This document shows positions 1,296 to 29,642 of a stretch of DNA of 64,000 nt, in pieces. Numbering within the stretch: position 1 is the first letter of the stretch; each line of letters begins with the position of its first letter. The DNA is taken from the IMG/VR virus record IMGVR_UViG_3300045988_184255; one strand, written 5' to 3'. The translations under genes and the position numbers were made by a program. The stretch comes from a virus. The notes below the pieces were generated by a model. That model had not been told where the DNA came from and ran no database searches. It saw only the letters and a list, made by a program, of their open reading frames with translations.

Positions 1296-1313
1296 AAAGA
1301 AAGGAGAAACGCT

Positions 1314-2351: not shown

Positions 2352-2372
2352 AAAGCAAGAAAGGAGAAAGCT

Positions 2373-3467
2373 ATGGATTTGAAAACCATTGACACTGCAG
2401 CCGACATAGGACGTGCAGAGGGTTCATCCCTCTGCACGACACTGTGCAATTACGTCTATGAAGCGCTAAAGGACAAGGATTACTGTTGCAAGGACCCCTT
2501 TGGCGAGGCTCGCTGTGGCAACCGCCGCATCAACATTTGCTACGTATCCGGCGGAGCCGCAACCATCACCCATGTATCGCTTGCAATCTGCCTCAACAAT
2601 ATGCTCTTCGCAGATAATAAGCGTGGGATGAAGCTCTGTTGGACGGATATGTATAATGATGTCATGGCTGCTGCAAAGCAGGCTGCGGCGAAGCACAGTG
2701 CTCGTGTATTTGCACCGAAACAGGTGCTGGGTACTGTACCACGTATTCAGACGGACTGGGCCAGTATGTCGAAGAGTGTCTACTCAAATGAAAAGCCTGA
2801 TTCTTTGCCGCGAGTCGAGAAATCCTATGTTGCAAAGTTTTCCTTTGCCTTCTATCGGACATCCTACTATGCCGACAAGGATATTCCTGATTCCAAAATC
2901 ATCTGGGATGCCTTCTGCCGGCAGAGGGAGGAACACTTCAGGCTTCACAAAGCGGATAAAACTATCATGCAGCCGGTCTATAAACTGAAGTATTCCGATT
3001 ACGGCAGGTTGTTCTCTTATATTGAAACGACCTACTGTATCGAGGGCATCGACAAAAACAGCCTCCCCATCGGAGTATCCCTCCGCCAGATGGACGGCAG
3101 GGAACCCGGCAAGACTGTTGAATGGCCTTTCAACCGCGTGGAAGAGATTCTACGTGATATTGAGGACAGCATGGCTGCTGACCAGCATATTGAGTCAGGC
3201 AAGGAAGAGGAGGCTATGTTCTACAAGAACAAGCAGGTCATCCAACGCCGACTCGACGAGGAGGGCATCGACATCGTCTACCGTGAAATGTTTGACTTCT
3301 GCGGATGCAGTTATGTTCTTACTGCCATCCACCCCAAGGCACGAAAGCACGTCTTCACAGCTATTTGCCTTGGCGACGAGGAGGGGAAGGAGAAGGCTCA
3401 CAAAAAGACCTTTGGCTGGGAGCTGCTCCGCATTATCAGCACACACAGATTTACCGCCACCGCCTGA
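2373..3467 (+). CDS. Paralog C of the Cys-x-x-DPFG tandem family (364 aa)
   Basis: RBS aagaaaggagaaagct then ATG; YCCKDPFGEARCG, IPDSKIIWDA, IVYREMFD. Confidence 0.7.
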   Translation: MDLKTIDTAADIGRAEGSSLCTTLCNYVYEALKDKDYCCKDPFGEARCGNRRINICYVSGGAATITHVSLAICLNNMLFADNKRGMKLCWTDMYNDVMAAAKQAAAKHSARVFAPKQVLGTVPRIQTDWASMSKSVYSNEKPDSLPRVEKSYVAKFSFAFYRTSYYADKDIPDSKIIWDAFCRQREEHFRLHKADKTIMQPVYKLKYSDYGRLFSYIETTYCIEGIDKNSLPIGVSLRQMDGREPGKTVEWPFNRVEEILRDIEDSMAADQHIESGKEEEAMFYKNKQVIQRRLDEEGIDIVYREMFDFCGCSYVLTAIHPKARKHVFTAICLGDEEGKEKAHKKTFGWELLRIISTHRFTATA

Positions 3468-3487
3468 AAGGAGAGACCTTACGACCG

Positions 3488-3517
3488 AAAAGCGCCCCTA
3501 CGGGCGCTTTTCTTTTG
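3488..3517 (+). terminator. Rho-independent terminator closing the paralog A-C operon (aaaagcgcccctacgggcgcttttctttt)
   Basis: GC stem with tacg loop followed by T-run; first element of the repeated cassette. Confidence 0.7.
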
Positions 3518-3527
3518 CCTGAAATCA

Positions 3528-3661
3528 TTGACAAAATATCAAACTGTGGTAGTATAGAATTATAATTACGAAGCTATTTTTATAAAGGAGAGTATCTCCG
3601 TTTCAAGTCACCATACATAAATTCAGACAGTTATCCCAATCTTGGGTGGCTGTCTTTTTTT
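3528..3661 (+). promoter_or_regulatory. Cassette copy 1: promoter TTGACA-N16-TGgTAGTATAGAAT, SD-sequestering hairpin (GGAGA gta TCTCC), and leader hairpin agacagttatcccaa/ttgggtggctgtct plus T7
   Basis: Near-identical sequence occurs six times in the window at operon heads. Confidence 0.75.
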
Positions 3662-3726
3662 ATATATTTTTATACATTTTATATGCCCATAAGTCCTCTT
3701 AATAGGCAGGGAGAAAGGAGAAAAAT

Positions 3727-4758
3727 ATGGATGTGAAATCTCTCAACGGCTCATCCGGAAGATGGAGCGATATTAGTCTGGCCGTACCATTTGATACCGG
3801 CATGGATAGAAAGATTCGTGACAAGCTGATGGATGCCGTGGCGGAAGAACTGAAAGGCAACGCCAACTGCGGCTACGACCCTTTCGGTGCAGAACGCTTC
3901 GGCATCAAGCGCCATAACTGTGGCTACATTCAGAAAAACGGCAGCTACATCGTCGGTATTGGTATCCGCATTGTGATGGATACAAATTACGATTCAGACG
4001 TGTCCCGCGAGCTTATTCGTCAGGATATGCTTCCTGCTGTGCAGCGTGTGGCAGCACAGTTCGGCGTAAGGGCAACCGTTGTGGAACGGAGTTCGCAACT
4101 CTTCGATGCGGAGTTGGAGGACAAAACAATCAGGCGCAATGTTCTCATCAATCTGTTTGAGTGCAGATTTTACCGCACAGTATTCCATGACGAAGCGCAA
4201 GTTCCGACCGAAAAAATCGAGTGGGATGCCTACTGCGCTCACTGTGCGACTTTGCCACGGGACGTTCCGCCAAAACGTTTGCTGAATCCGAACGATTTCG
4301 GCATCACCTTCAAGAAGGGACGATATGAGTACGAACTCGTTGGTGTCTACAAGTACCGTCCGTGGAAGTACGTTGTTGGAAAGCGAATCGGCGAAGTCTC
4401 TACTGGCAAGGAAATCCTCATTCCCCGTGAGGAGATGGAGCAGATTTGCTACGAGCTGCAATGCACAGACAAGGATGCTCTGGCCTTGGAAAATGCCAAG
4501 GACGAAGAAGCCGCATTCTACCGCAACAAAGAGTATATCCGGCATCGACTTGAACGCTTTGGCATCGACATTTCCTACCGTGAGATGTACTCGTATGACG
4601 GACATGACTTTATCATCATCGGCATCCAGCCGAAAGCCCATACCTACCCCTTCGTGGTGCGTTGTGTGGATGAGGACGGTCCGATGTCCGGTAAGGTGAG
4701 CAAGCAGCGGTTATGGAACGTTTTGGACGTGATTGCTGCGGAACGCAGAAAGCAATAG
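3727..4758 (+). CDS. Paralog D of the Cys-x-x-DPFG tandem family (343 aa), first gene after cassette 1
   Basis: RBS gggagaaaggagaaaaat then ATG; NCGYDPFGAERFG, VPTEKIEWDA, ISYREMYS. Confidence 0.7.
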   Translation: MDVKSLNGSSGRWSDISLAVPFDTGMDRKIRDKLMDAVAEELKGNANCGYDPFGAERFGIKRHNCGYIQKNGSYIVGIGIRIVMDTNYDSDVSRELIRQDMLPAVQRVAAQFGVRATVVERSSQLFDAELEDKTIRRNVLINLFECRFYRTVFHDEAQVPTEKIEWDAYCAHCATLPRDVPPKRLLNPNDFGITFKKGRYEYELVGVYKYRPWKYVVGKRIGEVSTGKEILIPREEMEQICYELQCTDKDALALENAKDEEAAFYRNKEYIRHRLERFGIDISYREMYSYDGHDFIIIGIQPKAHTYPFVVRCVDEDGPMSGKVSKQRLWNVLDVIAAERRKQ

Positions 4759-7106: not shown

Positions 7107-7139
7107 GAAAAGCGTCCCTGACGGGGCGCTTTTCTTTTC
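7107..7139 (+). terminator. Rho-independent terminator (gaaaagcgtccctgacggggcgcttttcttttc)
   Basis: GC hairpin plus T-run immediately 3-prime of the 5060..7081 stop. Confidence 0.7.
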
Positions 7140-7150
7140 GACTAAAACGA

Positions 7151-7286
7151 TTGACAAAATATCAAACTGTGGTAGTATAGAATTATAATTACGAAGCTAT
7201 TTTTATAAAGGAGATTATCTCCATTTTCCAAGTCACCATACGTAAATTCAGACAGTTATCCCAATCTTGGGGTAGCTGTCTTTTTT
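7151..7286 (+). promoter_or_regulatory. Cassette copy 2 (promoter plus leader hairpins)
   Basis: Same TTGACAaaatatcaaactgtggtagtatagaat ... agacagttatcccaatcttggggtagctgtcttttttat as copy 1. Confidence 0.75.
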
Positions 7287-7352
7287 ATATATTTTCATAC
7301 ATTTTGAGTTCCCGTAAGTCCTTATTACAGGCAGGGAGAAAGGAGAAAAACA

Positions 7353-12154: not shown

Positions 12155-12186
12155 AAAAAGCTCCCTTCGGGGAGCTTTTTCTTTTG
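12155..12186 (+). terminator. Rho-independent terminator (gaaaaagctcccttcggggagctttttcttttg)
   Basis: ttcg-loop hairpin plus T-run. Confidence 0.7.
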
Positions 12187-12196
12187 CCTGAAATCA

Positions 12197-12332
12197 TTGA
12201 CAAAATATCAAACTGTGGTAGTATAGAATTATAATTACGAAGCTATTTTTATAAAGGAGATTATCTCCGTTTTCCAAGTCACCTTAAAGAATCAAGACAG
12301 TTATCCCAATCTTGGGATGGCTGTCTTTTTTT
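12197..12332 (+). promoter_or_regulatory. Cassette copy 3 (promoter plus leader hairpins; leader variant accttaaagaatcaagacag)
   Basis: Repeat of the cassette; hairpin agacagttatcccaatcttgggatggctgtct plus T7. Confidence 0.75.
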
Positions 12333-12395
12333 ATATATCTACATACATTTTTGTGTTCCCGTAAGTCCTTCAAGGCTGGGAGAAAGGAGAAACAA

Positions 12396-14912: not shown

Positions 14913-15365
14913 ATGGATGCCTTTTTGGAAAAGCTCAAAAAGTCTTTTGTCGAACGTTTTACGTCTTTGATGGAAGACAACGGCGACTCCGTGACGGAAG
15001 CTGCGAGGATTATCGGTGTTGCTCCGGAAGCTGTCTCAACGTGGCTGCGTGGGCGTATCGTGCCGAGCATTGATTACTTCGCTAAAATTGCGGATGTTTA
15101 CAATGTCTCTGTTGATTATCTGCTGGGTCAATCTGAGACCCAGCAGATAAAAGACATCCCCGATGAGGCGGCATATCCGGCTGTTCCCGCACGAGCCTTC
15201 TACAACTCGGCACTACAGCTTATGGCAAAACAGAATTCTCTCATTTCCCAACAGAATGCGTTGTTGCAGCAACAGAACGCTATTCTGAAGGCAATGCAGC
15301 AGAAGGCCACTGTTGAGAACACATCTCTGCCTTCGACAGATGTGCCTCTTGGTTTGCCATTTTGA
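14913..15365 (+). CDS. XRE-family (Cro/cI-type) helix-turn-helix regulator (150 aa)
   Basis: TEAARIIGVAPEAVSTWLRGRIVPSIDYFAKIADVYNVSVDYLLG is a classic HTH_3 pattern; RBS gggaggtgcccaca. Confidence 0.7.
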   Translation: MDAFLEKLKKSFVERFTSLMEDNGDSVTEAARIIGVAPEAVSTWLRGRIVPSIDYFAKIADVYNVSVDYLLGQSETQQIKDIPDEAAYPAVPARAFYNSALQLMAKQNSLISQQNALLQQQNAILKAMQQKATVENTSLPSTDVPLGLPF

Positions 15366-15440
15366 GCAGAAAGGAGATTTTATAACCTTGGAGGGGGCTG
15401 TTGTTTGCAGCAGTCCTCTCTTTCTATACATAGTCTGTTT

Positions 15441-15470
15441 GACAGAGAGCGTACAAATGGGCTATAATAG
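15441..15470 (+). promoter_or_regulatory. Internal sigma-A-type promoter TTGACA-N18-TATAAT upstream of the small-gene/kinase pair
   Basis: Consensus -35 and -10 hexamers seen in the sequence; the flanking ctctct...gagag inverted repeat overlaps the -35. Confidence 0.55.
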
Positions 15471-15498
15471 AGTTGAAAATTGAAAGGAGGATACAACT

Positions 15499-15714
15499 AT
15501 GGAAGAATTCGTAAAGGGCGTATCCAAAACTTGCCTATATGAAGACCCTCACTGTGACGAAGAGGATGCGGAAATGGACCGTCGGATTTCGTCGGTAGCC
15601 TTTGAAGCCTATCAACGGGCAAAAATGAAAGGTATTCCTGTTGCTCGCTATGATGCAGAGAAAAAGTGTGCCTATTTACTGTATCCGGATGGGAGAATCG
15701 AGTATGTCAAATGA
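15499..15714 (+). CDS. Small protein (71 aa); epsilon-antitoxin-like partner candidate
   Basis: RBS ttgaaaggaggatacaact then ATG; overlaps the start of the downstream P-loop kinase by 11 nt. Confidence 0.45.
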   Translation: MEEFVKGVSKTCLYEDPHCDEEDAEMDRRISSVAFEAYQRAKMKGIPVARYDAEKKCAYLLYPDGRIEYVK

Positions 15715-16384
15715 GAAACAGCGGAAACCTTGCATTATCGTTTTCGCTGGGCCTAACGGGTCAGGTAAAAGCTCACTTACAAGTAGAGTAGATATACTAC
15801 CCCCGTATATCAACGCAGACGACATCAAAAAAGAAACTGGATGCAGCGATTTGGAAGCGGCACAGAAGGCTGATGCAATGCGCTTACAGTGTGTAGAATG
15901 GGGCGAAGATTTTACCTTCGAGACAGTTTTGTCCACGAATAAAAAACTGGAATTTCTAAAATATGCAAAAGAGCATGGGTATTTCATAAAAGGCTTTTTC
16001 GTTCTTACGAAAGACGCATCCGTAAACGTACTTCGTGTATGGGAACGTGTTCAATCTGGAGGCCACGACGTACCTGAAGAAAAGATTCGGTCTCGGTACG
16101 AAAAGTCTTTGGCAAGGGTTCAGGCCTTTGTTGACCTATGCGACATCTGCCATATTTATGACAACTCCGGCTCTTCAACGGATAGAATATTCAAGAAGGC
16201 ACATGGCGACACCTATAAATGCAGGGAAAATGCTTTCTGGAGCAAACAGGAAATCTGTGACCTCGTAGGCATCAAAAGCAATAATGTTGGAGAACTTCTG
16301 CTTTCCGACTATGAGAAGAAGCTCTGTAATTCACTTAATAGTGCTACTGAGACTGAGGAGGACGTAGATAGAAATGACAAGTAG
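15704..16384 (+). CDS. P-loop kinase resembling zeta-toxin family (226 aa)
   Basis: Walker A VFAGPNGSGKSS near the N-terminus; size and the overlapping small upstream gene fit an epsilon/zeta-like module. Confidence 0.5.
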   Translation: MSNEKQRKPCIIVFAGPNGSGKSSLTSRVDILPPYINADDIKKETGCSDLEAAQKADAMRLQCVEWGEDFTFETVLSTNKKLEFLKYAKEHGYFIKGFFVLTKDASVNVLRVWERVQSGGHDVPEEKIRSRYEKSLARVQAFVDLCDICHIYDNSGSSTDRIFKKAHGDTYKCRENAFWSKQEICDLVGIKSNNVGELLLSDYEKKLCNSLNSATETEEDVDRNDK

Positions 16385-17310: not shown

Positions 17311-17340
17311 AAAGAGGCCCGAAAGGGCTTCTTTTTTTTT
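17311..17340 (+). terminator. Rho-independent terminator (aaagaggcccgaaagggcttcttttttttt)
   Basis: GNRA-type loop hairpin plus T9. Confidence 0.7.
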
Positions 17341-17353
17341 GGCTCTGTAATGA

Positions 17354-17489
17354 TTGACAAAATATCAAACTGTGGTAGTATAGAATTATAATTACGAAGC
17401 TATTTTTATAAAGGAGATTATCTCCGTTTTCCAAGTCACCATACGTAAATTCAGACAGTTATCCCGTTTCGGGGATAGCTGTCTTTTTT
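17354..17489 (+). promoter_or_regulatory. Cassette copy 4 (promoter plus leader hairpins; hairpin variant agacagttatcccg tttc ggggatagctgtct with compensatory changes)
   Basis: Repeat of the cassette; the stem changes preserve pairing. Confidence 0.75.
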
Positions 17490-17553
17490 ATATATTTTCA
17501 TACATTTGTGTTCCCATAAGTCCTTATCATAGGCAGGGAGAAAGGAGAAATTC

Positions 17554-18117
17554 ATGACTGACTATCCTAATGAAATTGCCCGTTTAGACGCACAGCGTCG
17601 AAAGAATCACGATGCCACCGCCTATGAGGAGCTTGACAAGGCCTATACCGAATCCGGTCATACCGTGTTCATTATGGCACTCAACGCCCTCATTTCGCTG
17701 GGACGTGATACCGTCGCGGCCATGGCGCATCCTGCGGCTATCGCTGCGACTATCCAAGGGAACATCTTTTCCGAGGATTTCAAGCTGGAGGTCGGACGTA
17801 TCGCACTGATGATGGCAAACGCCGACATCGACGTTCTGTTGGCCGTTATTCAGCGCATAGTCGTCCCCTTCACTGACCCTCAGGGCAAGCGCATCCCGTT
17901 CCTGCACCCCAACGGCGACGAGGAGGACGTCTGCCCCGTGTGTGGCGCCGAGGTCGAATATCAGGGCGACCGTGAAATCGACTACAACGATGGTACGGAG
18001 GTGAGCTGGGAATGCCCCGTCTGCAAGGCGTTTGGCAAGGCACTGTACCACGACACCTTCCTCCAGCACGATTCTGTGATTGATGGGAATGGTGATTGCG
18101 TACACGACCGTGTCTGA
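17554..18117 (+). CDS. Protein of unknown function (187 aa) with C-terminal CxxC...CxxC
   Basis: RBS gggagaaaggagaaattc then ATG. Confidence 0.6.
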   Translation: MTDYPNEIARLDAQRRKNHDATAYEELDKAYTESGHTVFIMALNALISLGRDTVAAMAHPAAIAATIQGNIFSEDFKLEVGRIALMMANADIDVLLAVIQRIVVPFTDPQGKRIPFLHPNGDEEDVCPVCGAEVEYQGDREIDYNDGTEVSWECPVCKAFGKALYHDTFLQHDSVIDGNGDCVHDRV

Positions 18118-18159
18118 GCATTCCCGCACGCTATACTCAAGAAGAAAGGAGAAAGCACC

Positions 18160-18783
18160 ATGACCAAGAACTTCAAGACGGTCGTTGAAGCACTGAACGA
18201 GACCGGCTTCTATCTGGCCTTCTGCAATCTTGTCGTAAACAAGATTGTAAGAATCCCCATCAAGAAAATTATCTCCGCTGCGGAGGGAAACATTGATGGC
18301 ATTTCCAACTGGCTGGAACACGCTGTGAAAGACGCCTGCTCCGCTTTTAATCAGGACGTTACCATCGACGACCGGATTATGAAGATGGAGGGCGAGATTC
18401 TGCGTGTCACCCATTTCTGCTTTGACCCCCGCATCCGCGAGGCTTTCAAAGAAATGGGCTATGAGCGCATCTCAGAGGTGTACGAGTCCCGTGGCATCAA
18501 CATCGAGGACACCGGTATGTTGGAGAAGGTCAAAAGCGTGTTCTGTACCTACGTCTTTCTGCTGAACCAGCAGGATAAGACGCTTGGTATCGACCTCTCC
18601 GTTGTCCCTTCTGTGGGTTCCTACAGCATTCGTTTCAACGAGTGCATTCAGGACTCCATCGTATTCAAGGACGAGGCGGCAGCGAAAGCATTTGCCAAGG
18701 CAAACGGATTGGAGAAGCCGTTCATTTCCTTCTACAAGATGACTGCTTATTGGCAGCCCCTTGAGGAAGGAGATGCGGTGTGA
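18160..18783 (+). CDS. Protein of unknown function (207 aa)
   Basis: RBS gaagaaaggagaaagcacc then ATG. Confidence 0.6.
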   Translation: MTKNFKTVVEALNETGFYLAFCNLVVNKIVRIPIKKIISAAEGNIDGISNWLEHAVKDACSAFNQDVTIDDRIMKMEGEILRVTHFCFDPRIREAFKEMGYERISEVYESRGINIEDTGMLEKVKSVFCTYVFLLNQQDKTLGIDLSVVPSVGSYSIRFNECIQDSIVFKDEAAAKAFAKANGLEKPFISFYKMTAYWQPLEEGDAV

Positions 18784-19223
18784 GCACTTCTCAAACCACT
18801 TCCCTGCCGCTTGCTGCTGTCCGCATTAAAAATGCACGGCTGTCTCTGGAACTATCTCAGAGTCAGCTTGCAGAAAGGTGTGAGGTGACTCCACAGACCA
18901 TCTACAAGTATGAGTCTGGGCGAGTGGAGAATATCCCCCTGAAGACTTTGGAACGCTTCGCCGAGGTACTGGGCGTCTCCCCTGCTTATCTGGCGGGCTG
19001 GACGAACTCACCTGCCGGCACCAGCGTTCTGGATATTCAGGTACGAGGAGCCACTCTGCTCTGTGCCACCTGCCCCATCTGCGGAAGCCTGAAGTTCGGC
19101 CCGAAGCACGGAAGTGCCTATGGACCCGAAGCCCGTTGCTCCGACTGCGGTACAACATTCCGTCTCGATGCCGACCAGTTTCCTCTGAAGACTGTTCGGC
19201 TTGGTATGTCACTGCTGGCCTGA
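18780..19223 (+). CDS. XRE-family HTH regulator with C-terminal zinc ribbon (147 aa)
   Basis: LSQSQLAERCEVTPQTIYKYESGRVENIPLKTLERFAEVLGVSPAYL is an HTH_3 pattern; C-terminal CPICG...CSDCG. Confidence 0.7.
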   Translation: MSTSQTTSLPLAAVRIKNARLSLELSQSQLAERCEVTPQTIYKYESGRVENIPLKTLERFAEVLGVSPAYLAGWTNSPAGTSVLDIQVRGATLLCATCPICGSLKFGPKHGSAYGPEARCSDCGTTFRLDADQFPLKTVRLGMSLLA

Positions 19224-19255
19224 GCGCCAGCTTTTTGAAAGAAAGGAGAAAAAAC

Positions 19256-19681
19256 ATGACTATCACCCGTAATATTCCGATTCCCGACCCCAAGGCCACT
19301 ATCACTTTCGAAATCGAGCTGACCCGCAGCGAGCTGGAGACCGCGTATCGTGAACAGGAGCGATACTACCGGCTGATGGATGCGGAAGGCCAGCTCTGCA
19401 CATATCTGGGTTTCGATGTCAGTGACTTCGACCCCGATAACGAGGACGACGCCGAGAAGCTGGAGAGCTTCAAGGAAAAGTTCGGTGACACTGAGCCGGC
19501 ATCTCTGGTCGATGAGGAGTCTCCGAACTATGTGCTGAACGATATCGTCGCTCAGTTCGAGCACGATGCTGACTGCAACAATGACGTGAACTCCACGTGG
19601 CAGAACGCCGTCGAGAAAGTGCTGAACATCCTGCAGGCGCGTCTCAACTACGAGGCGGTCAGCGGCGGTGATGAGGCATGA
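19256..19681 (+). CDS. Acidic protein of unknown function (141 aa)
   Basis: RBS gaaagaaaggagaaaaaac then ATG. Confidence 0.6.
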   Translation: MTITRNIPIPDPKATITFEIELTRSELETAYREQERYYRLMDAEGQLCTYLGFDVSDFDPDNEDDAEKLESFKEKFGDTEPASLVDEESPNYVLNDIVAQFEHDADCNNDVNSTWQNAVEKVLNILQARLNYEAVSGGDEA

Positions 19682-19998
19682 GTATTCTGAGATTCCCTGA
19701 CAAGCGTTATCTCAAGAATGCCATTTGCGGCACTGTCACGTTGCTGCCCATTGCGGTGGTAGACCCGAAACCTTGTGTTGTCTCTGCGAGGCTGTACCCG
19801 CATCGCTATGATGGTGCGGCACTGTATCGTTATATCGTAGTGGATGCGGAGAACATCGGCATTATCTACGATGACGCGCAGGGGTACGGGTACAAGAACG
19901 CTGAGGCCGCAAAACGAGCGTTTTCACACAAGTATCGCGGAATGTATCCCTTTAACTATGTGTGGCCTCCCGTGCGGGAAGCCGAATTTTACGAATAA
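19678..19998 (+). CDS. Small protein (106 aa) with DDAQGYGY...AAK motif; paralog of 40487..40885
   Basis: ATGA overlap with the upstream gene; shared motif DDAQG[FY]GY(x4-5)AAK[RA][AY]. Confidence 0.5.
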   Translation: MSILRFPDKRYLKNAICGTVTLLPIAVVDPKPCVVSARLYPHRYDGAALYRYIVVDAENIGIIYDDAQGYGYKNAEAAKRAFSHKYRGMYPFNYVWPPVREAEFYE

Positions 19999-20059
19999 CA
20001 CAGAAGCCCCTGCGTCCTCTCTTTTTGGAGAGGACGCGGGGCTGAAAGGAGAAAAAACT

Positions 20060-20866
20060 ATGATAAGGACTGTTGAGATGCCTATTTTGCATCGTGAAAT
20101 CGCGGAGTTCCTCGACCCTCGCATCCATGAGGCTGCGCCGGGAACTCCGTCGTTTGCACTGCATGGTTTTCGCATCGACGACCGCGAGTATGTGATGGAC
20201 TGCCTGCCCACCGTGGGACTCATGGTGGGCTACCGCATCGTCGAGACCGGTGAACTGGTTTCAGCGCTGCAGTTCGACAAGGGTGTTTCTGAGGAAAAAC
20301 AGATTTTCCATGCGTTGCTGTTTGCACCTTGTGCGAAATATCTGGCGACGAAAAACTGCGTGTCTTCCCTGCCTGACGGGTCGTATGGTGATATTGAGTG
20401 CTTCTATATCATCTACAAAAACCCTGAGGCACGATGCTGGCTGCCTCGCTGTGAGACTCCTGTCATCGGGGCCGGCAATGCCGAGCAGCGATTCACGACA
20501 GAAGTGCGGCTGAATACGATGGATGGCTTTGTAAGCTATCTGTATTTCGATTTCACAACCCGTGGCTCTTGCGGTACAAACTTCTTCAACTCCGTCTGCG
20601 AGAACGTCCAGCGTATGCTGCGTGAGGATTGGGACGCTCTGGCTGCCACCGTACCCGCCGTTTCTTACGATGCGGGAAGTGAAATTCTGTCCATCCCCTT
20701 CTCGAATGTAAATGGCGATTATACGCTGATGGATTTCGAGAAGAAGTGGGCAGGGGCGCATGAGCTCACCTCACTGGTCACGTCGATTCGGCTGGTCAAA
20801 AACGACATCACACTGTATAAAGACAGTCGTTTCGATGCGCCGGAAGTGGAGGTCGTCCATGAGTAA
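20060..20866 (+). CDS. Protein of unknown function (268 aa)
   Basis: RBS gctgaaaggagaaaaaact then ATG; preceded by hairpin gaagcccctgcgtcctctctttttggagaggacgcggggctg. Confidence 0.6.
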   Translation: MIRTVEMPILHREIAEFLDPRIHEAAPGTPSFALHGFRIDDREYVMDCLPTVGLMVGYRIVETGELVSALQFDKGVSEEKQIFHALLFAPCAKYLATKNCVSSLPDGSYGDIECFYIIYKNPEARCWLPRCETPVIGAGNAEQRFTTEVRLNTMDGFVSYLYFDFTTRGSCGTNFFNSVCENVQRMLREDWDALAATVPAVSYDAGSEILSIPFSNVNGDYTLMDFEKKWAGAHELTSLVTSIRLVKNDITLYKDSRFDAPEVEVVHE

Positions 20867-21092
20867 GAAGGCTGATGACCGCGTATACAAAGTCAAAATC
20901 CAGCGGCCAATCTTTCCTCCCGATGCTCCGTTTCTGGCAATGAGCGAGTGCGGCTGCATCCAGCCGACACTTCTTCAGGCAACACCGGAGCTGAAGGGCC
21001 TGCTTGGGGAAAGGCTGAAGGTGTATTGTGATTGCAAAATCGTGGACACAAAACTTGTCATCCTGCGGGAACGCACGGGCGACAACTGGTGA
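20859..21092 (+). CDS. Small Cys-containing protein (77 aa)
   Basis: ATG overlaps the upstream stop by 8 nt (translational coupling). Confidence 0.45.
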   Translation: MSKKADDRVYKVKIQRPIFPPDAPFLAMSECGCIQPTLLQATPELKGLLGERLKVYCDCKIVDTKLVILRERTGDNW

Positions 21093-21104
21093 AAGGAGAA
21101 AGAT

Positions 21105-21689
21105 ATGGGACGTAAAGCAACTCGTTCCGCCGAAGAAATAGCCAAGGCAAAACGGGATATGTTCATCAGAACCGCCGAAAAGCGTGTCGGACGTATTCTG
21201 GACGGTCTGGATATGCTGGAGTGCCTGTCTACCCGTTATAGCGGGTACTACACTGAGGAACAGGTCAATGCCATGTTCAGTGCCATCCGCAAGAAGGTGG
21301 ATGAAGCCGAGAAGAGCTTCCGGACGAACGGGAAAACAAAGCTGTTTTCCTTTTCCGATGAATCCACTTCCTGCGGAGAGTTCAACCTCGAAGCCGGCGA
21401 GCGCATCGGTATCTCGTTGAAGGTCATCAATGACTGCAATATGAGCGTAGCACCCAATAAGCTGGAAGTTGAGACCTTCCCTGACGGCAGCGAACCGACT
21501 TACTATGAGCTATTCAACAGCGAAGGTATGCTTTGCTGCTGTGATGGCGAGGTCGTCACTGTGGTACGCACCGGCGTCGATAAAAATGGCGTCGAAGCTG
21601 CGTGGTTGTATGCCACTGACTCCAACGGTGAGACTGGGCCTGAGTTTTCTCTGCCCATTGAAGCTCTGAAGGTCGGCGTGTTCCGCTGA
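21105..21689 (+). CDS. Protein of unknown function (194 aa)
   Basis: RBS gtgaaaggagaaagat then ATG. Confidence 0.6.
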   Translation: MGRKATRSAEEIAKAKRDMFIRTAEKRVGRILDGLDMLECLSTRYSGYYTEEQVNAMFSAIRKKVDEAEKSFRTNGKTKLFSFSDESTSCGEFNLEAGERIGISLKVINDCNMSVAPNKLEVETFPDGSEPTYYELFNSEGMLCCCDGEVVTVVRTGVDKNGVEAAWLYATDSNGETGPEFSLPIEALKVGVFR

Positions 21690-21709
21690 AAAAGGAAAGG
21701 AGAAAAAGA

Positions 21710-23113
21710 ATGAATCATTTTTGCTACAACTCTCTATTCGGGTTTTCTGAGAAGAAGCTGAAAAAAATGGAAGACAACCACCGTATCGTAGTGGATGGCG
21801 ACCTCATCGACTCTGCAAAGGCATACGAAGACATTATGCAGAGTGATGTTTTCAGGCATATATCATGCCGATTCGTCCCGGAGGGCGATGTAAAAAATAA
21901 GAGGGGCATCAGAATATACGATAACGTTTTTCGGGCCTATGTAAAGGAACGCGGCTACGTGCTGCCTACTTCCGAGGCGAGCGACGTTTTCTTTGCCGAG
22001 GCTGAGAAGGGCGTTGTCGTGAATGTGACTGCCACGGAACTGGCGGAGCGCTATATTCGTGAACGGCTGCATCAGACCAAGGAAAAGCTCATTCCTTTGT
22101 CTATGCTTGAGCTTCACCTCCTGCTGGTCATGGGCATCTGCAGCATAAAGGACGGCAAGCCGTTTGGCAAGGACGGGAAGTGGCTGAATGGCTACATCAA
22201 TGTCTACAATGCTGCGACCTTCCCTGATTTGGTTTGCTACATCACCGGCAAGGATTGCAGAGTGGCGCCGTTTGCCTCGTACACATGGAACGAAATTCTC
22301 GCCGTGTGTGAAGGCAACAACAATCTGGCTGTTCGGGTATTCAACGCGCTTCGGGAGGATGCGACACACTCATGGACTCCTGAGGGAGTCGTTGCTTTCT
22401 TCACCGATTTAGGCATGGAGGACAGTGCCGGTGAGGATGACGACGAGGACAACCTCATCCACGTGGAGAAGCACTACGAGGTCTCTGACGGTCTGGCGAA
22501 GGCACTCGGTTACAAGGGCGACCTGTTCACCATGGACGTTGCGGATTTCAACCGTGTCTCTTCGCGGCTGGGGAACCTGCACTGCCTCGTCGAAGCCATC
22601 CCTGAAATCATCCATGACAGAGACTTCAGCCGGTTTTCTTCCATGAGCATGAACGGCTACTGGAACGTGCTTCTGAATTTGGCGCTGACCAATCTCATTG
22701 AGGACCTGCGTATCCATGCTATTGCACGTAACTCCGATACTGGCGTTGTCATTGATGTCGATGGCAAGAAGCAGGAAGTCACTGGCGGCAAGAATACCTC
22801 CAAGGAGGAGTCATCGGAAAGTGAAGCCTTCTGGGACTTCAAGACCATTTGGCTGTACTGCCGAACGGCTGATTTTGCCAAGTCAAAGGACCGTGAGATG
22901 TTGCGGACTCTTTGGGACAATATGGTTGAGGACCAGCACATCGTTCCAAAGAGCGCTGAGTACAAGCTGCTGCTTGTTAAGCTCTGGGGCATCTTGAATG
23001 CCGAAGAAACCGATGGACATATCACTGCCGGCAATCGCCCCACTCTTATCCGCAATCGTTTTTTCGGATTCTGGGATGATTTTGCCAAGTTCATGGGTGA
23101 GCATCTTTCCTGA
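21710..23113 (+). CDS. Protein of unknown function (467 aa)
   Basis: RBS aaaaggaaaggagaaaaaga then ATG. Confidence 0.6.
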   Translation: MNHFCYNSLFGFSEKKLKKMEDNHRIVVDGDLIDSAKAYEDIMQSDVFRHISCRFVPEGDVKNKRGIRIYDNVFRAYVKERGYVLPTSEASDVFFAEAEKGVVVNVTATELAERYIRERLHQTKEKLIPLSMLELHLLLVMGICSIKDGKPFGKDGKWLNGYINVYNAATFPDLVCYITGKDCRVAPFASYTWNEILAVCEGNNNLAVRVFNALREDATHSWTPEGVVAFFTDLGMEDSAGEDDDEDNLIHVEKHYEVSDGLAKALGYKGDLFTMDVADFNRVSSRLGNLHCLVEAIPEIIHDRDFSRFSSMSMNGYWNVLLNLALTNLIEDLRIHAIARNSDTGVVIDVDGKKQEVTGGKNTSKEESSESEAFWDFKTIWLYCRTADFAKSKDREMLRTLWDNMVEDQHIVPKSAEYKLLLVKLWGILNAEETDGHITAGNRPTLIRNRFFGFWDDFAKFMGEHLS

Positions 23114-23148
23114 AAACTTTTCACAGCAAAGCACTGATTTTTCCACTA

Positions 23149-23180
23149 AGAAAAGCTCCTTCGGGGGCTTTTCTTTTTTT
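23149..23180 (+). terminator. Rho-independent terminator (gaaaagctccttcgggggcttttctttttttctc)
   Basis: ttcg-loop hairpin plus T-run. Confidence 0.7.
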
Positions 23181-23267
23181 CTCAATTTTTGCTGAATTTG
23201 AAAGAAAGAAAACGCTCGAAAATGGCTTGGTTATGCGGTTTTCATGGACTATGTTTGTTCCTGTTCT

Positions 23268-23379
23268 CCCGACTAAAATCTCAAATTTTTATTCGGTTTT
23301 TCCCGACTAAAGTTTAGTTCTTATAACTCTGATTTCCCGACTAAAATTGCAATTTGAAAATTCGGAAATCCCGACTAAA
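23268..23379 (+). repeat. Four direct iterons CCCGACTAAA (starts 23268, 23302, 23336, 23370) at exact 34 bp periodicity; ttcgg motif upstream of copies 2 and 4 (tattcgg / aattcgg)
   Basis: Found by direct counting in the noncoding gap between the terminator and cassette 5. Confidence 0.7.
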
Positions 23380-23427
23380 ATCAAAAAACAGTGCAAATGT
23401 AATAAACGCAATTTGGTGCCTAAAATG

Positions 23428-23563
23428 ATTGACAAAATATCAAACTGTGGTAGTATAGAATTATAATTACGAAGCTATTTTTATAAAGGAGATTATCTCC
23501 GTTTTCCAAGTCACCACATAAATTCAGACAGTTATCCCAATCTTGGGGTAGCTGTCTTTTTTT
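23428..23563 (+). promoter_or_regulatory. Cassette copy 5 (promoter plus leader hairpins; lacks the ttcccgtaagtcct pre-RBS motif)
   Basis: Repeat of the cassette. Confidence 0.75.
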
Positions 23564-23607
23564 ATATATTTATTGCATTTTTCGACAACAAAGAAAGGAG
23601 AAACACC

Positions 23608-24129: not shown

Positions 24130-24335
24130 GTAAGCATCGTTGGACTATCGAGGAACTGAAGAACGTCAATGACGCTCAGTTCGCTATGGCGATTCTGATG
24201 GAACGCCGCAGTGAGTTATCGAATCCCTACACCCCGTTCGCACAGCGCCTTACCAGCGTCATCAATACGCTGACGGACATGGCTGTGGATGGCGGGCTGA
24301 CAGACGAAGAAAGGAGTAAGAACAATGGCCGCTGA
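24126..24335 (+). CDS. Small protein (69 aa) whose C-terminal 34 aa tail is duplicated at the end of the next gene
   Basis: GTG start overlapping the upstream stop; the tail YTPFAQRLTSVINTLTDMAVDGGLTDEERSKNNG recurs at 24670..24777. Confidence 0.45.
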   Translation: MSKHRWTIEELKNVNDAQFAMAILMERRSELSNPYTPFAQRLTSVINTLTDMAVDGGLTDEERSKNNGR

Positions 24336-24777
24336 AATGAGACTTTACCGCGTAACGGTTATCGGCAGCAATGCCGAAAGGAAGCGCGGAAAAGTGGTGG
24401 AAGAGGTCACAGTCAAGGTCGGAACCAAGTGGCTGACGGACGATAACGGTCGGCGTTACTACAAGGTGCCGCTTGAGGACGCAAACCGAAACCTCTACTT
24501 CCAGCTCAACACCATGTACTGCATGGACTACCGGCTGTATCAGACAGAGCAGGCCGCCAAGGATTACCTTCGGCAAGCGGAACTGCGTGTGGCGCTTTGC
24601 AAGGCGGTGAGCAATTTCGGCTTCAACGCTCCCCTGCCTGTGCTGGAGAAGGTCATGGATACGCTGAAATACACCCCGTTCGCACAGCGTCTCACCAGCG
24701 TCTTCAATACGCTGACGGACATGGCTGTGGATGGCGGGTTGACGGACGAAGAAAGGAGCAAGAACAATGGCTGTTGA
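24325..24777 (+). CDS. Protein (150 aa), first copy of a tandem duplicate pair
   Basis: ATG embedded in the upstream gene tail (aacaATGgccgctgaaatgag); N-terminal MAAEMRLYRVTVIGSNAERKRGKVVEEVTVKVGTKWLTD. Confidence 0.55.
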   Translation: MAAEMRLYRVTVIGSNAERKRGKVVEEVTVKVGTKWLTDDNGRRYYKVPLEDANRNLYFQLNTMYCMDYRLYQTEQAAKDYLRQAELRVALCKAVSNFGFNAPLPVLEKVMDTLKYTPFAQRLTSVFNTLTDMAVDGGLTDEERSKNNGC

Positions 24778-25135
24778 GATGAGACTCTACCGCGTGCCTA
24801 TTATCGGTAGTAATGCCGAACGGCGGCACGGAAAGGTGGTGGATGAGGTCACGGTCAAGGTTGGAACCAAGTGGCTGACAGACAATAGAGACTGTCGATA
24901 CTACAAGGCTCCTTCCGAAGATGCGAACAGAAATCCCTATTTCCAGCAGAACTCCATGTACTGGAGTACAGATTACCGGCTGTATCAGACGGAACAGGCT
25001 GCCAAGGACTATCACCATCAGGCGGAATTGCTCATAGCTCTTCGCAGAGCCGTTGGCGACTTCGGCTTCAACGCCCCGTTGACCGTGCTGGAGAAGGTCA
25101 TGGACACTCTCAAGGAAGGCGGATGCTTGAAATGA
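24767..25135 (+). CDS. Protein (122 aa), second copy of the tandem duplicate (MAVEMRLYRVPIIGSNAERRHGKVVDEVTVKVGTKWLTD)
   Basis: Same junction sequence as the upstream copy; about 70 percent identical. Confidence 0.55.
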   Translation: MAVEMRLYRVPIIGSNAERRHGKVVDEVTVKVGTKWLTDNRDCRYYKAPSEDANRNPYFQQNSMYWSTDYRLYQTEQAAKDYHHQAELLIALRRAVGDFGFNAPLTVLEKVMDTLKEGGCLK

Positions 25136-27254: not shown

Positions 27255-28295
27255 ATGGGTAATACATCTATCGGAGCCGCTGCATCTTTCTGCAACGAGA
27301 ACACGCTGGTCAAGGTCTACCGCTATAATCCTAAGTACGACAGGTTCGAGACGACCTTCGTTCCTTTCAAGGACATCCGCAAGAGCGATTCTGTGAGCGT
27401 CTTTGCCAGTGATGGGCACGAGATGCACTTTTCCGTTCTCACAAATGCTTCTTTTAAGAAGGACGAGCGATACGGGAACGAGTGCGGTTGGTCTGTGAAA
27501 GTCACTGAGGACGGCGGCAAGACGGAGATGGTTCTTCGTCCCACCGATTTCGCGCCCTACATCATCAGCCTTTCCGTTACCGACGAAGGAGAGTGGCGCG
27601 GCTGCCGGCTGCTTTTCGAAAGCGTCCTCAACGACACCGAAGCTATCGTCAACAATATGCGGGCGCGATTCGAGCCGCGTGTTGCGCCGGAAAACACCTG
27701 CGGGCGGCATTCCGACACAGTTGCGGCCATGGCGAAGAGAGACCTTACTCGTGAGTGGACGGAGCAGTTCGGCTTCCGGCTCATTTCGGACAGCGTAAAC
27801 TTCGCCCAGTGCAGTGTGAAGGACATTCTCTCTGATAAGTTCTTCAATCCCCCTGCCATGGAGTTGACGTTCTTCGCCTATTCCGACGGCGAGTATTCAG
27901 CGTCCCCCCTGTTCTTTGCCAAACTGCCCGATTTGGGCGAACGGTACAACAAGCCTGAGGGACGTGCTGCAATCGCAGAACTGCTGCAGAAGCTGGATGA
28001 GATGTACGGCGACCTGCCTGAAGACACAACAAAATGGGCTCTGGAGTATCAGCTTTGGGCTCGTATGCTGCTGGCAGAAGGTGCGGTCATGCTGAATCCG
28101 AAGCACCTCGACCTCCCCGACTGCGCCTACGAATTCAAAACGCTGGCTTTCGGTAATAAAATGCTGAAAGACAGCGGTGACGGTATTGCGTGGGCAAAGG
28201 CTGTCAAAACACCTATCAGCGTAATCGCCGAGGCGTGGGAGAATGACATGAGCGAGTCCGGCGATGAGGCTTTTACCTGCATCGTGACGGGCTGA
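27255..28295 (+). CDS. Protein of unknown function (346 aa), first of a tandem paralog pair
   Basis: RBS aaagaaaggagaaaaatt then ATG; shares LTFFAYSDGEYS..PLFFAKLP...YQLWARMLL.EGAVMLNPK with the next gene. Confidence 0.6.
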   Translation: MGNTSIGAAASFCNENTLVKVYRYNPKYDRFETTFVPFKDIRKSDSVSVFASDGHEMHFSVLTNASFKKDERYGNECGWSVKVTEDGGKTEMVLRPTDFAPYIISLSVTDEGEWRGCRLLFESVLNDTEAIVNNMRARFEPRVAPENTCGRHSDTVAAMAKRDLTREWTEQFGFRLISDSVNFAQCSVKDILSDKFFNPPAMELTFFAYSDGEYSASPLFFAKLPDLGERYNKPEGRAAIAELLQKLDEMYGDLPEDTTKWALEYQLWARMLLAEGAVMLNPKHLDLPDCAYEFKTLAFGNKMLKDSGDGIAWAKAVKTPISVIAEAWENDMSESGDEAFTCIVTG

Positions 28296-28309
28296 AAGGA
28301 GAAAAACAT

Positions 28310-29362
28310 ATGGATATGCCGATTTCGAACAAGCGAAAGCTGCACTGCGACGAGAACGTACTGGTCCACATTGTGCGCTACTGCCATGATACGGATGACG
28401 CAGATGGCGACGGCGTCAGAGAGGTGGAAATGTACGTCCCCTTCAAGCACATTTGCAAGGGCGATGCCATTGATATTCCTGATAAGGACACCGACGATGC
28501 CTTCAGAACAACCGCCTATGCTGCGGAAGACGCTTCGTACAACGAGGCTAAGGCGGGTGGTTGGTTTGTGCCGGTCGCCTGCACTGGGCAGAAAGATTAC
28601 ATTCTGAAGCCCGACGATTTCGCACCTTGGCTCGTGACACTGAGCGTTGTGTTCACGAACGGGTCGTCCTGCAAGCTCTTTTTCGAGTGCGTGGAACGAA
28701 GCGAAGAGAAGCTGCGGGCAAACATCCGCAGAATCTTTGACGATGTGCCGACGCTGCGGCATGAGATGGGCTTCGTTGCCCTCGTCCGCCATATGGCATG
28801 GAAGTACCTCACACCGGAAAGAACGGAGCCTCTCGGCTTCAGATTCCTTTCGGATGATGTCGTCTGGAGCAACTGCAAAGTGAAGGACATCCTTCCTGAC
28901 CGGTTCTTCGCGGCGGCTGACATGAAGCTGACGTTTTACGCCTATGCGGAAGATGAGTATTCTGGGAATCCTCTGTTCTTTGCAAAGCTGCCGTATCTCG
29001 GTACGCATCACGGACATCCTGAAGGTTGTGTGATTTGCGCTTCCATCCTGCGGAAACTGGATGAGCTGTATGGCGACCTGCCGACGGAAACGTCCCGTTG
29101 GTCGCTGGAATACCAGCTCTGGGCGCGTATGCTGCTCTCTGAGGGAGCAGTTATGCTCAATCCGAAGTACATTGACTTGCGCCAAGACGGTGCGCTTGAT
29201 GCGCTTCTGGAGGACATTCCGATGATTGATGGTTTCGCCGATGACGTCGCTTGGCGTCGTGTGGCAGGTGTACCCATCGACGAAATCCATGAAGTGTGGG
29301 ATGCGAGTTCGGATGATGGTGTCGCTCCGTTCACCTATACCGTCCGAGCAAAAATCCTTTGA
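28310..29362 (+). CDS. Protein of unknown function (350 aa), second paralog
   Basis: RBS ctgaaaggagaaaaacat then ATG; about 45 percent identical to the upstream neighbour over the C-terminal 200 aa. Confidence 0.6.
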   Translation: MDMPISNKRKLHCDENVLVHIVRYCHDTDDADGDGVREVEMYVPFKHICKGDAIDIPDKDTDDAFRTTAYAAEDASYNEAKAGGWFVPVACTGQKDYILKPDDFAPWLVTLSVVFTNGSSCKLFFECVERSEEKLRANIRRIFDDVPTLRHEMGFVALVRHMAWKYLTPERTEPLGFRFLSDDVVWSNCKVKDILPDRFFAAADMKLTFYAYAEDEYSGNPLFFAKLPYLGTHHGHPEGCVICASILRKLDELYGDLPTETSRWSLEYQLWARMLLSEGAVMLNPKYIDLRQDGALDALLEDIPMIDGFADDVAWRRVAGVPIDEIHEVWDASSDDGVAPFTYTVRAKIL

Positions 29363-29395: not shown

Positions 29396-29426
29396 AAAGA
29401 AGCTCCTTCGGGAGCTTCTTTTTTTG
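29396..29426 (+). terminator. Rho-independent terminator (aaaagaagctccttcgggagcttctttttttg)
   Basis: ttcg-loop hairpin plus T-run. Confidence 0.7.
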
Positions 29427-29437
29427 CGCCAAAAGGA

Positions 29438-29575
29438 ATTGACAAAATATCAAACTGTGGTAGTATAGAATTATAATTACGAAGCTATTTTTATAAAGGA
29501 GATTATCTCCGTTTTCAAGTCACCACAAAGAATCAAGACAGTTACTTCCCTTTTCTGGGAAGTGACTGTCTTTTT
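29438..29575 (+). promoter_or_regulatory. Cassette copy 6 (promoter plus leader hairpins; hairpin variant agacagttacttccc ttttct gggaagtgactgtct)
   Basis: Repeat of the cassette with covarying stem bases. Confidence 0.75.
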
Positions 29576-29642
29576 CTATATATAACATTTTTTGGATTCC
29601 CGTAAGTCCTTATTACAGGCTGGGAGAAAGGAGAAAAAGACC

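Follow-up and report, generated by a model that had tools for sequence, protein, structure and literature searches.

The 64,000-nucleotide stretch of DNA filed as IMG/VR record IMGVR_UViG_3300045988_184255, referred to here as the window, raises the question of what a set of four short, evenly spaced direct repeats is doing in a gap between two operons. A preliminary description, made from the letters alone, had noticed four copies of a decamer at an exact spacing of 34 bp and had taken them for a phased protein-binding array, serving a Rep initiator at an origin of vegetative replication (oriV), a ParB or other centromere-binding protein (parS-like), or a relaxosome accessory factor. Although filed as viral (UViG, uncultivated virus genome) in IMG/VR, the element is best read as a large, probably conjugative, circular plasmid of about 190 kb from a Gram-positive host, since its genes include those for ParA, two RepL-family proteins, topoisomerase III and Gram-positive surface adhesins, and since none of ten proteins tested matched PHROGs. 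The repeats proved to be a real and conserved feature, which is probably functional and of an ordinary kind, i.e. phased protein-binding sites by a promoter.

The decamer CCCGACTAAA occurs in four exact copies on the + strand of the window, starting at 23268, 23302, 23336 and 23370, with a start-to-start spacing of 34/34/34 bp. Searching both strands confirmed these copies and their spacing, and no fifth copy was found anywhere in the 64 kb, even with one mismatch allowed. The conserved repeat unit is longer than the decamer and comprises 13 nt, TCCCGACTAAA[A/G]T, with starts at 23267, 23301, 23335 and 23369. When the window was scanned for 8-mers present at least three times within 300 bp, the array was the sole equally spaced match, and in about 0.9 Mb of related loci it was the sole non-coding phased array, barring a different repeat adjoining parA in L053. 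By our own estimate, four identical 10-mers at one fixed offset would be expected by chance about 1e-11 times in DNA of the size of the window, while a few would be expected of pairs alone. The 21-nt spacers within the array match each other at 4-10 of 21 positions (the random expectation for their composition being 0.31), whereas the cores agree at 12-13 of 13 positions, indicating that the array did not arise by recent tandem duplication. A short block has been kept at its spacing, while the sequences in between have drifted or were never related. The ATTCGG motif described earlier upstream of copies 2 and 4 is present at 23291-23296 and 23360-23365, but the second instance is not kept in relatives, where it reads ATTCAG, ACTCTG or ATTCTG.

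The array sits in a 494-bp gap between a 467-codon and a 60-codon gene (Table 1). Its placement between an operon terminator and a promoter cassette (cassette 5), as first described, was borne out: it follows the terminator of operon 4 at 23148-23182 and precedes the cassette 5 promoter, TTGACA(23429). The GC content of the array region is 33-37%, and the other intergenic cassette regions are likewise AT-rich. Only two 42-codon open reading frames (ORFs), both starting with TTG, overlap the array, and single-base indels found inside one of them in a related lineage (lineage C, below) would break its frame. Neither strand of the array folded better as RNA than shuffled sequences (z = +0.98 and +0.81), and the array had no match in Rfam.

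Look-ups by exact flanking proteins and by the repeat pattern recovered the array in five diverged lineages from many metagenomes. Lineage A (the window, L004 and L347) has four copies spaced 34/34/34 and is the reference form, and lineage B (L005-L007, L342 and L344) has the same copy number and spacing with a few single nucleotide polymorphisms (SNPs) in the spacers. In lineage C (L338-L340) four copies are spaced 34/34/33 and an IS605 TnpB gene splits the gene upstream; lineage D (L343, L346 and L349) has three copies spaced 38/34, copy 2 being missing. Lineage E (L345, L348 and L350) has four copies, the first of them degenerate, and its spacing has stayed at 34/34/34 despite heavy substitution of the spacers. 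In an alignment of nine distinct variants from the five lineages, with the cores counted as 10 nt, 3 of 40 core columns were variable as opposed to 20 of 72 spacer columns (Fisher p = 0.014) and to 60 of 206 among all other intergenic positions (p = 0.003). Conservation differed between the copies. Copy 1 varies, reading TTCCGACTCAAAT in lineage E and CCCGACCAAAAT in L343; the 10-nt core of copy 2 is invariant wherever this copy is present and that of copy 3 is invariant in 9/9 distinct variants. In copy 4 all 13 nt are invariant in the nine aligned variants, and one SNP was seen in a further contig, L360 (TCCAGACTAAAAT). The best-conserved part therefore comprises copies 3 and 4 and a 30-nt block, TTTGAAAAyTCnGAAATCCCGACTAAAATC, which ends in copy 4, while the distal copy 1 decays. 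With constrained cores and free spacers, the cores and their approximate spacing are under selection, and a protein-binding array is indicated. To this extent the pattern fits the preliminary description; the three roles proposed there, oriV, centromere and relaxosome site, are each disfavoured for reasons given below.

Related plasmids lacking the array were also found. In L073 (the 174-kb contig 183830) and L341, operon 3 runs directly into a cassette that is a hybrid of 4 and 5, with operon 5 behind it; operon 4 and the array were lost together, evidently via recombination between cassettes. Contig 183830 carries the same RepL genes, at 99% identity, and yet has no array, nor did it give any match in an IMG/VR-wide scan for the array. 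A diverged clade has homologues of both array flanks, each behind a variant cassette, and no array; a recognisable homologue of the conserved block 5′ of copy 1, GGCTTTTCAAAGTCGAG, exists in the array-less clade. Contigs L356 and L358 have kept the exact XRE regulator of operon 4 with the tail of the operon replaced, and show no array within 6.5 kb. The array is thus dispensable for plasmid maintenance. Among 81 distinct cassette upstream regions, a repeat array was found in one only, that of operon 5.

The constrained cores, free spacers and near-fixed spacing, together with the lack of RNA structure and of coding capacity, point to a protein-binding DNA array. The position of the array next to a promoter, the superior conservation of its proximal part and the overlap of copy 4 with a promoter-like -10 hexamer link it to local transcription. 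This hexamer, the tail of copy 4, belongs to a predicted sigma-70-like promoter, TTGAAA-16-TAAAAT, whose TTGAAA hexamer and 16-nt spacer length are kept in all lineages. The cassette 5 -35 box lies 47 bp beyond the end of copy 4. The sites are thus short, lie within about 200 bp of a promoter and are conserved above background, most strongly at the proximal end, as in operator arrays. Local transcriptional control is also suggested by the uniqueness of the array among the 81 cassette upstream regions, taken together with the conservation of its proximal copies. We therefore tentatively favour, as a reading that falls somewhat short of probable, a lineage-specific and operon-specific array of operators or upstream sites controlling the promoter of operon 5, i.e. 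an extra input on top of the shared cassette. Three or four head-to-tail sites for one predicted sequence-specific DNA-binding protein would be built into the terminator-to-promoter spacer ahead of operon 5. Bound at intervals of ~34 bp (~3.2 helical turns), protomers of this protein would cover about 115 bp between roughly -55 and -160, counted from the cassette -35 box, the proximal site overlapping the -10 hexamer of the conserved auxiliary promoter-like element. Occupancy would give operon 5 a control input that the other cassette-driven operons lack, and might repress or activate the adjacent promoters, possibly by occlusion, looping or filament formation. The candidate binders, named on circumstantial grounds, are two XRE proteins (encoded at 14913-15365 and, within operon 4 at 17554-23113, at 18780-19223) and the 60-aa Cys/His-rich protein encoded by the first gene of operon 5.

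Several observations weigh against operon-specific control. The comparisons singled out no binding protein, and an identical copy of the operon 4 XRE regulator is encoded on L356 and L358, where the array is lacking. In the natural deletion variants and in the diverged clade the downstream operon has the same cassette and no array, so that the array is not needed for operon 5 to have a promoter. The sites lie rather far 5′ of the main promoter, with centres between about -88 and -190 (counted from the inferred start), and the 34-bp spacing does not put them on one helix face. Single-base indels have been tolerated, the spacing being 33 bp in lineage C and 38 bp in lineage D. In addition, the contrast between cores and spacers comes from few, phylogenetically related sequences. 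A more specific version, which we consider conceivable but unlikely, is that the array is the nucleation site of a plasmid-encoded factor, perhaps one encoded in operon 4, which is deleted along with the array; such a factor would switch a single operon separately from the others that share the same cassette.

A centromere-like or incompatibility site for segregation or copy control, bound by a protein of the ParR, ParG, omega or TubR type or by a second ParB, would account for part of the picture, as phased direct repeats with free spacers are typical of such sites, each element has one array and the plasmid carries ParA. The colinear 190.7-kb contig described below places ParA about 52 kb from the array, however, with upstream repeats of its own (GGTATACAACCCTGT, three times) and with a palindrome, GTGTGCAATNATTGCACAC, of which copies are found in several intergenic regions. 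No par gene was recognised in the flanks of the array or among the scanned proteins of the window, which represent most but not all ORFs. Natural variants without the array, i.e. contig 183830 (174 kb) with its 99% identical RepL genes and L341, and a whole diverged clade with no array at either flank, likewise argue against this role, which we regard as rather improbable.

Absence of any function was judged improbable as well. Slippage in an AT-rich spacer could have produced a tandem repeat that is now decaying or has been gene-converted: copy number (3 or 4) and spacing (33, 34 or 38 bp) vary between lineages, the distal copy degenerates in some of them, the array is dispensable, and a degenerate extra copy upstream suggests an origin by local duplication. 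Neutral decay would, however, spread changes evenly over the 34-bp unit. What is found instead is a contiguous block of 10-13 nt that is identical in all copies, between 21-nt spacers at random similarity, and cores that vary significantly less than the spacers between lineages; lineage E has moreover held the 34-bp spacing through many substitutions.

It is decidedly improbable that the array acts as RNA. Its transcript would start, for example, at one of the promoter-like sites (23227-23255 or 23354-23381) or come in antisense from the cassette, and an RNA-binding protein would be bound or titrated by the repeated UCCCGACUAAAAU motif; related ideas are a repeat RNA like that of type III antitoxins and a CRISPR-repeat mimic. 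All copies lie in the orientation of transcription, and two downstream paralogues have weak, sub-threshold ProQ-C-like matches. Repeats of type III antitoxins are known with periods of ~34-36 nt, and the ACTAAAA of the motif presumably resembles the 3′ end of some type VI CRISPR repeats. The array is located, however, after a strong terminator and ahead of the main promoter, no structure is predicted for either strand and no Rfam family was matched, and only 13 of 34 nt are repeated, with no conserved hairpin; relatives have lost the TCGG/CCGA pairing that precedes copy 4. A type III system would have a promoter, near-identical full-length tandem repeats, a terminator and a ToxN-family toxin gene in this order, which is not the order seen at the array; the searches gave no ToxN-like protein, and the downstream proteins match no toxin family. 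For a CRISPR array (repeat of at least ~23 nt, period of at least ~50 nt) the 13-nt core and the 34-nt period are too short. An RNA element, a type III antitoxin and a CRISPR-repeat mimic were thus rejected on position, repeat length and structure. A resemblance to T3/T7-like phage promoters was also rejected, the motif occurring nowhere else in the ~0.9 Mb of related sequence.

An oriV with the repeats as iterons for a Rep initiator was considered highly improbable. A non-coding, AT-rich site (33-37% GC) that holds four direct repeats next to a 467-aa gene without assigned function would be compatible with such an origin. Two RepL-family genes are encoded about 57 kb from the array on the same plasmid, however, and plasmids with these RepL genes and no array exist, contrary to the indispensability of iterons. 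There is no cluster of DnaA boxes, the lone nearby box with one mismatch being at chance level, and the cumulative GC skew, which the preliminary description had suggested as a check, climbs smoothly through the site without inflection. The flanking 467-aa gene is truncated, split by an insertion sequence (IS) or replaced, both with and without the array, the flanking genes have no similarity to Rep, and no Rep gene was recognised among the scanned window proteins, which represent most but not all ORFs. Equally improbable is an origin of transfer (oriT) in which the repeats are sites for a relaxosome accessory protein: such factors often bind direct repeats and the element looks conjugative (topoisomerase III, a thioester/SpaA-type adhesin and a SAF-domain protein), but the proteins scanned, representing most ORFs between 23 kb upstream and 40 kb downstream of the array, showed no relaxase-like domain, no notable inverted repeat or nick-site-like hairpin adjoins the array, and the array is absent from related plasmids.

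The 467-aa protein encoded upstream of the array was also considered as a possible Rep protein and rejected. It had no match in Pfam, PHROGs or PDB sequences, and an exhaustive HMMER search of 1.8 billion representatives returned only its own family and close relatives, with no remote homologues. An AlphaFold model of the protein was unusable (mean predicted local distance difference test score, pLDDT, 35.8). A C-terminal extension of ~107 aa in this protein at first looked co-inherited with the array, but was rejected as the binder because a 371-aa form without the C-terminal part also adjoins the array, in both its 3-copy and 4-copy forms (L343, L346, L349 and L357). An 84-aa 'homologue' of the extension is only a remnant of an IS605/TnpB insertion. 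In one lineage, a TnpB gene of the IS605 family (OrfB_IS605, Cas12f1-like TNB) is inserted in the 467-aa gene just 5′ of the array (L338 4750-5868, L340 422-1540, L350 44-1162), leaving the 84-aa C-terminal remnant ORF. The 60-aa Cys/His-rich protein encoded on the other side of the array is also found behind the array-less cassette of L073 and L341.

Among the matches listed from genome and metagenome motif scans was a wide range of unrelated tandem repeats containing CCCGACTAAA, including 53-54-bp arrays in many metagenome-assembled genomes (MAGs) of Lachnospiraceae and a 33-bp array beside housekeeping genes in L156. The 53-54-bp arrays listed lie at L103 65-700, L123 7300-7640, L138 500-830 and about 25 other loci of Lachnospiraceae MAGs. 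Hairpins are predicted from the units, each of which combines (G)CCCGACTAAAAC with part of an inverted copy, AGTCGGGC. Five of the arrays listed share a neighbour resembling a ComEC gene (the protein being read by eye), an observation judged uninformative for the plasmid array, to which these Lachnospiraceae arrays appear unrelated.

Classical iterons (pSC101, R6K, RK2, P1 and the lactococcal theta replicons) and sopC of F are direct repeats of near-constant spacing in AT-rich non-coding DNA, with one cluster per replicon. The array resembles them in its conserved core, its near-constant spacing, its non-coding AT-rich surroundings and its single cluster. Iterons are, however, usually 17-22 bp long and spaced by ~22 bp (two turns), they are indispensable and lie next to both a rep gene and an unwinding element rich in AT, and the sopC repeats adjoin sopAB; none of these features of adjoining genes, spacing or indispensability holds for the array. 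The tested defining features of oriV iterons, centromeres and oriT are all absent from it. The array can also be likened to the heptad arrays of the omega repressor (inc18, pSM19035) and to the multi-site operators of RcopLS20 (pLS20), which are short repeats, including direct ones, 5′ of Firmicutes plasmid promoters. These are bound cooperatively by a plasmid regulator, and the omega array doubles as a centromere. Omega heptads are contiguous 7-bp units, present at several promoters and adjoining par and copy-control genes, whereas the array consists of 13-bp units split by 21 unrelated bases, at a single site far from parA.

In its overall architecture, the closest published analogue of the locus is the establishment regulon of the pLS20 family. 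On these conjugative plasmids of Gram-positive bacteria, several variable 'establishment' operons are preceded by conserved regulatory sequences, EGeRS1 and EGeRS2 (PMC8708921). On plasmid p576 of this group of systems, the repeated promoters of the establishment genes (EGeRS2) are flanked by operators of the ribbon-helix-helix repressor Reg(p576) (PMC8708921). Like p576 and pLS20, the present element is a Gram-positive plasmid of conjugative type with variable accessory operons headed by copies of one conserved regulatory sequence, and has short, here predicted, protein-binding sites beside strong promoters. It differs from p576, which has operators at every promoter of the regulon and a known ribbon-helix-helix repressor, in that the array stands at one of the 81 distinct cassette upstream regions, 47-160 bp 5′ of the -35 box, and that its regulator is putative. 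No sequence similarity exists between the p576/pLS20 sequences and the array.

The regulatory sequence shared by the operons is a promoter-leader-terminator cassette of about 175 nt, six copies of which are present in the window, each heading an operon on the + strand (Table 1). Over the promoter and the initial ~85 nt of the leader the copies hardly differ. Each consists of a sigma-70-type promoter with an extended -10 element, a leader of ~100 nt with a small hairpin resembling a Shine-Dalgarno sequence and a strong intrinsic terminator; given this terminator, expression of the operons should need read-through or antitermination. The leader of cassette 5 folds with a minimum free energy of -29.2 kcal/mol (z = -5.6). 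At the other five cassettes of the window the terminator of the preceding operon abuts the promoter, and only cassette 5 has about 245 extra bp, which carry the array. A perfect palindrome, AATTATAATT, lies at the predicted start site of cassette 5 (23459-23468) and could be an operator. Within the extra sequence, the stretch 23231-23251, in the conserved block 5′ of copy 1, is 76% identical to 23289-23309. Half-sites related to the repeat had also been reported just before the cassette 2 promoter. The sequence CGACTAAAACGA is indeed present there, but cannot be distinguished from chance because the region 5′ of the -35 box is A-rich in most cassettes (CTGAAAT, CAAAAG, CTAAAAC), and half-sites as a general feature of the cassettes were rejected on the same ground.

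Table 1. Position of the repeats and of neighbouring or related features in the window
Feature	Position	Strand	Remarks
Upstream flanking gene, 467 aa	21710-23113	+	Orphan family
Intrinsic terminator of the upstream operon (operon 4)	23148-23182	+	12-pair stem followed by a T run; identical in all lineages
Conserved block 5′ of copy 1 (GGCTTGGTTATGCGGTTTTCATGGACTATG...)	23220-23266	+	Contains a degenerate repeat-like stretch; few variable columns
Repeat copy 1, TCCCGACTAAAAT	23267-23279	+	Distal, least conserved
Repeat copy 2, TCCCGACTAAAGT	23301-23313	+	
Repeat copy 3, TCCCGACTAAAAT	23335-23347	+	
Sigma-70-like promoter match, TTGAAA-16-TAAAAT	23354-23381	+	Consensus scan, 10/12 positions; predicted only
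Repeat copy 4, TCCCGACTAAAAT	23369-23381	+	Promoter-proximal
Cassette 5 promoter, TTGACA-16-TG-n-TAGTAT	23429-23456	+	Identical in all six window cassettes
Cassette 5 leader	23463-23565	+	Small hairpin and strong intrinsic terminator (23526-23557 plus U run)
First gene of downstream operon 5, 60 aa	23608-23790	+	Cys/His-rich
CGACTAAAACGA abutting the -35 box of cassette 2	7139-7150	+	Possible related half-site, doubtful significance
Promoter-leader-terminator cassettes	3507-3681, 7130-7304, 12176-12350, 17333-17507, 23408-23582, 29418-29592	+	Near-identical

The core of the cassette was matched exactly at least 83 times in IMG/VR; the matches lie on about 25 contigs (31-190 kb), the large ones having at least 11-13 copies each. 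The 190.7-kb contig IMGVR_UViG_3300045988_183936 is colinear with the window, and because the colinearity continues across the contig ends a circle is implied. ParA and the two RepL-family genes are encoded at 68.9-75.1 kb of this contig (L053 672-1460 and 5385-6864). Other contigs of the element filed as viral in IMG/VR are 3300045988_183585 and _183830. In a gut metagenome assembly collection of ENA, the 60-aa gene is indexed in 564 blocks, with contigs of up to ~230 kb; ENA holds many contigs of 160-245 kb for this element, and some of the records carrying it are named as 'Hadza' stool metagenome assemblies. Megablast and blastn searches with the array region against phage and plasmid collections returned no annotated relatives, and tblastn searches with the VWA protein and topoisomerase III gave distant matches only.

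Besides topoisomerase III and the SAF-domain protein, the window encodes Fic, zeta-toxin-like and PemK proteins and an AAA+/VWA pair. A surface adhesin of 1,897 aa (55961-61654, - strand) has a thioester domain (TED), five TQ ester-bond domains and seven SpaA-type domains; its internal DNA repeats, of 276 bp and ~380 bp, dominate the repeat scan. At 14913-16384, an XRE-type helix-turn-helix protein (150 aa), a 71-aa protein and a zeta-toxin-like protein (226 aa) form a triad that recalls the omega-epsilon-zeta arrangement of inc18 plasmids, with the XRE protein replacing omega. Tandem paralogues without Pfam assignment are encoded at 276-4758, 24325-25135 and 27255-29362, namely four genes of ~340 aa, two of ~348 aa and one ProQ-C-like pair; the members of this pair (150 and 122 aa), whose ProQ-C-like matches are weak and sub-threshold, are 83% identical at the DNA level over part of their length. 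The paralogues of ~340-350 aa were considered as actin-like partition proteins, and this was rejected after two of them, searched against PDB sequences, gave no match. A non-coding region of ~430 bp (40886-41316) adjoins a tRNA-Ser(tga) gene (41314-41401, - strand) and holds a palindrome, GTGTGCAATCATTGCACAC (41039-41057), and repeated units (GGTATACAAyCCTGTTATTTCAG ... CCGGTTATACCGTCCGTACT). Its motifs recur 5′ of parA in the 190-kb contig (L053 1480-1940), where three copies of the unit are present, and the palindrome is found in at least four intergenic regions there. Nothing in Rfam reached the gathering score for this region, which may be a second regulatory or centromere-like region of the backbone or a structured RNA.

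The array offers a way into a plasmid family which, although still undescribed, abounds in human-gut metagenomes. The site should not be annotated as oriV, parS or oriT. The accessory genome of the family consists of many operons behind one repeated cassette, and the array is the only operon-specific cis element found there. If a plasmid-encoded factor indeed switches operon 5 through it, accessory or 'establishment-type' genes would be under two-layer control, by a generic cassette and by operon-specific arrays. The identity of the binding protein would reveal what sets single operons apart from the control common to all.

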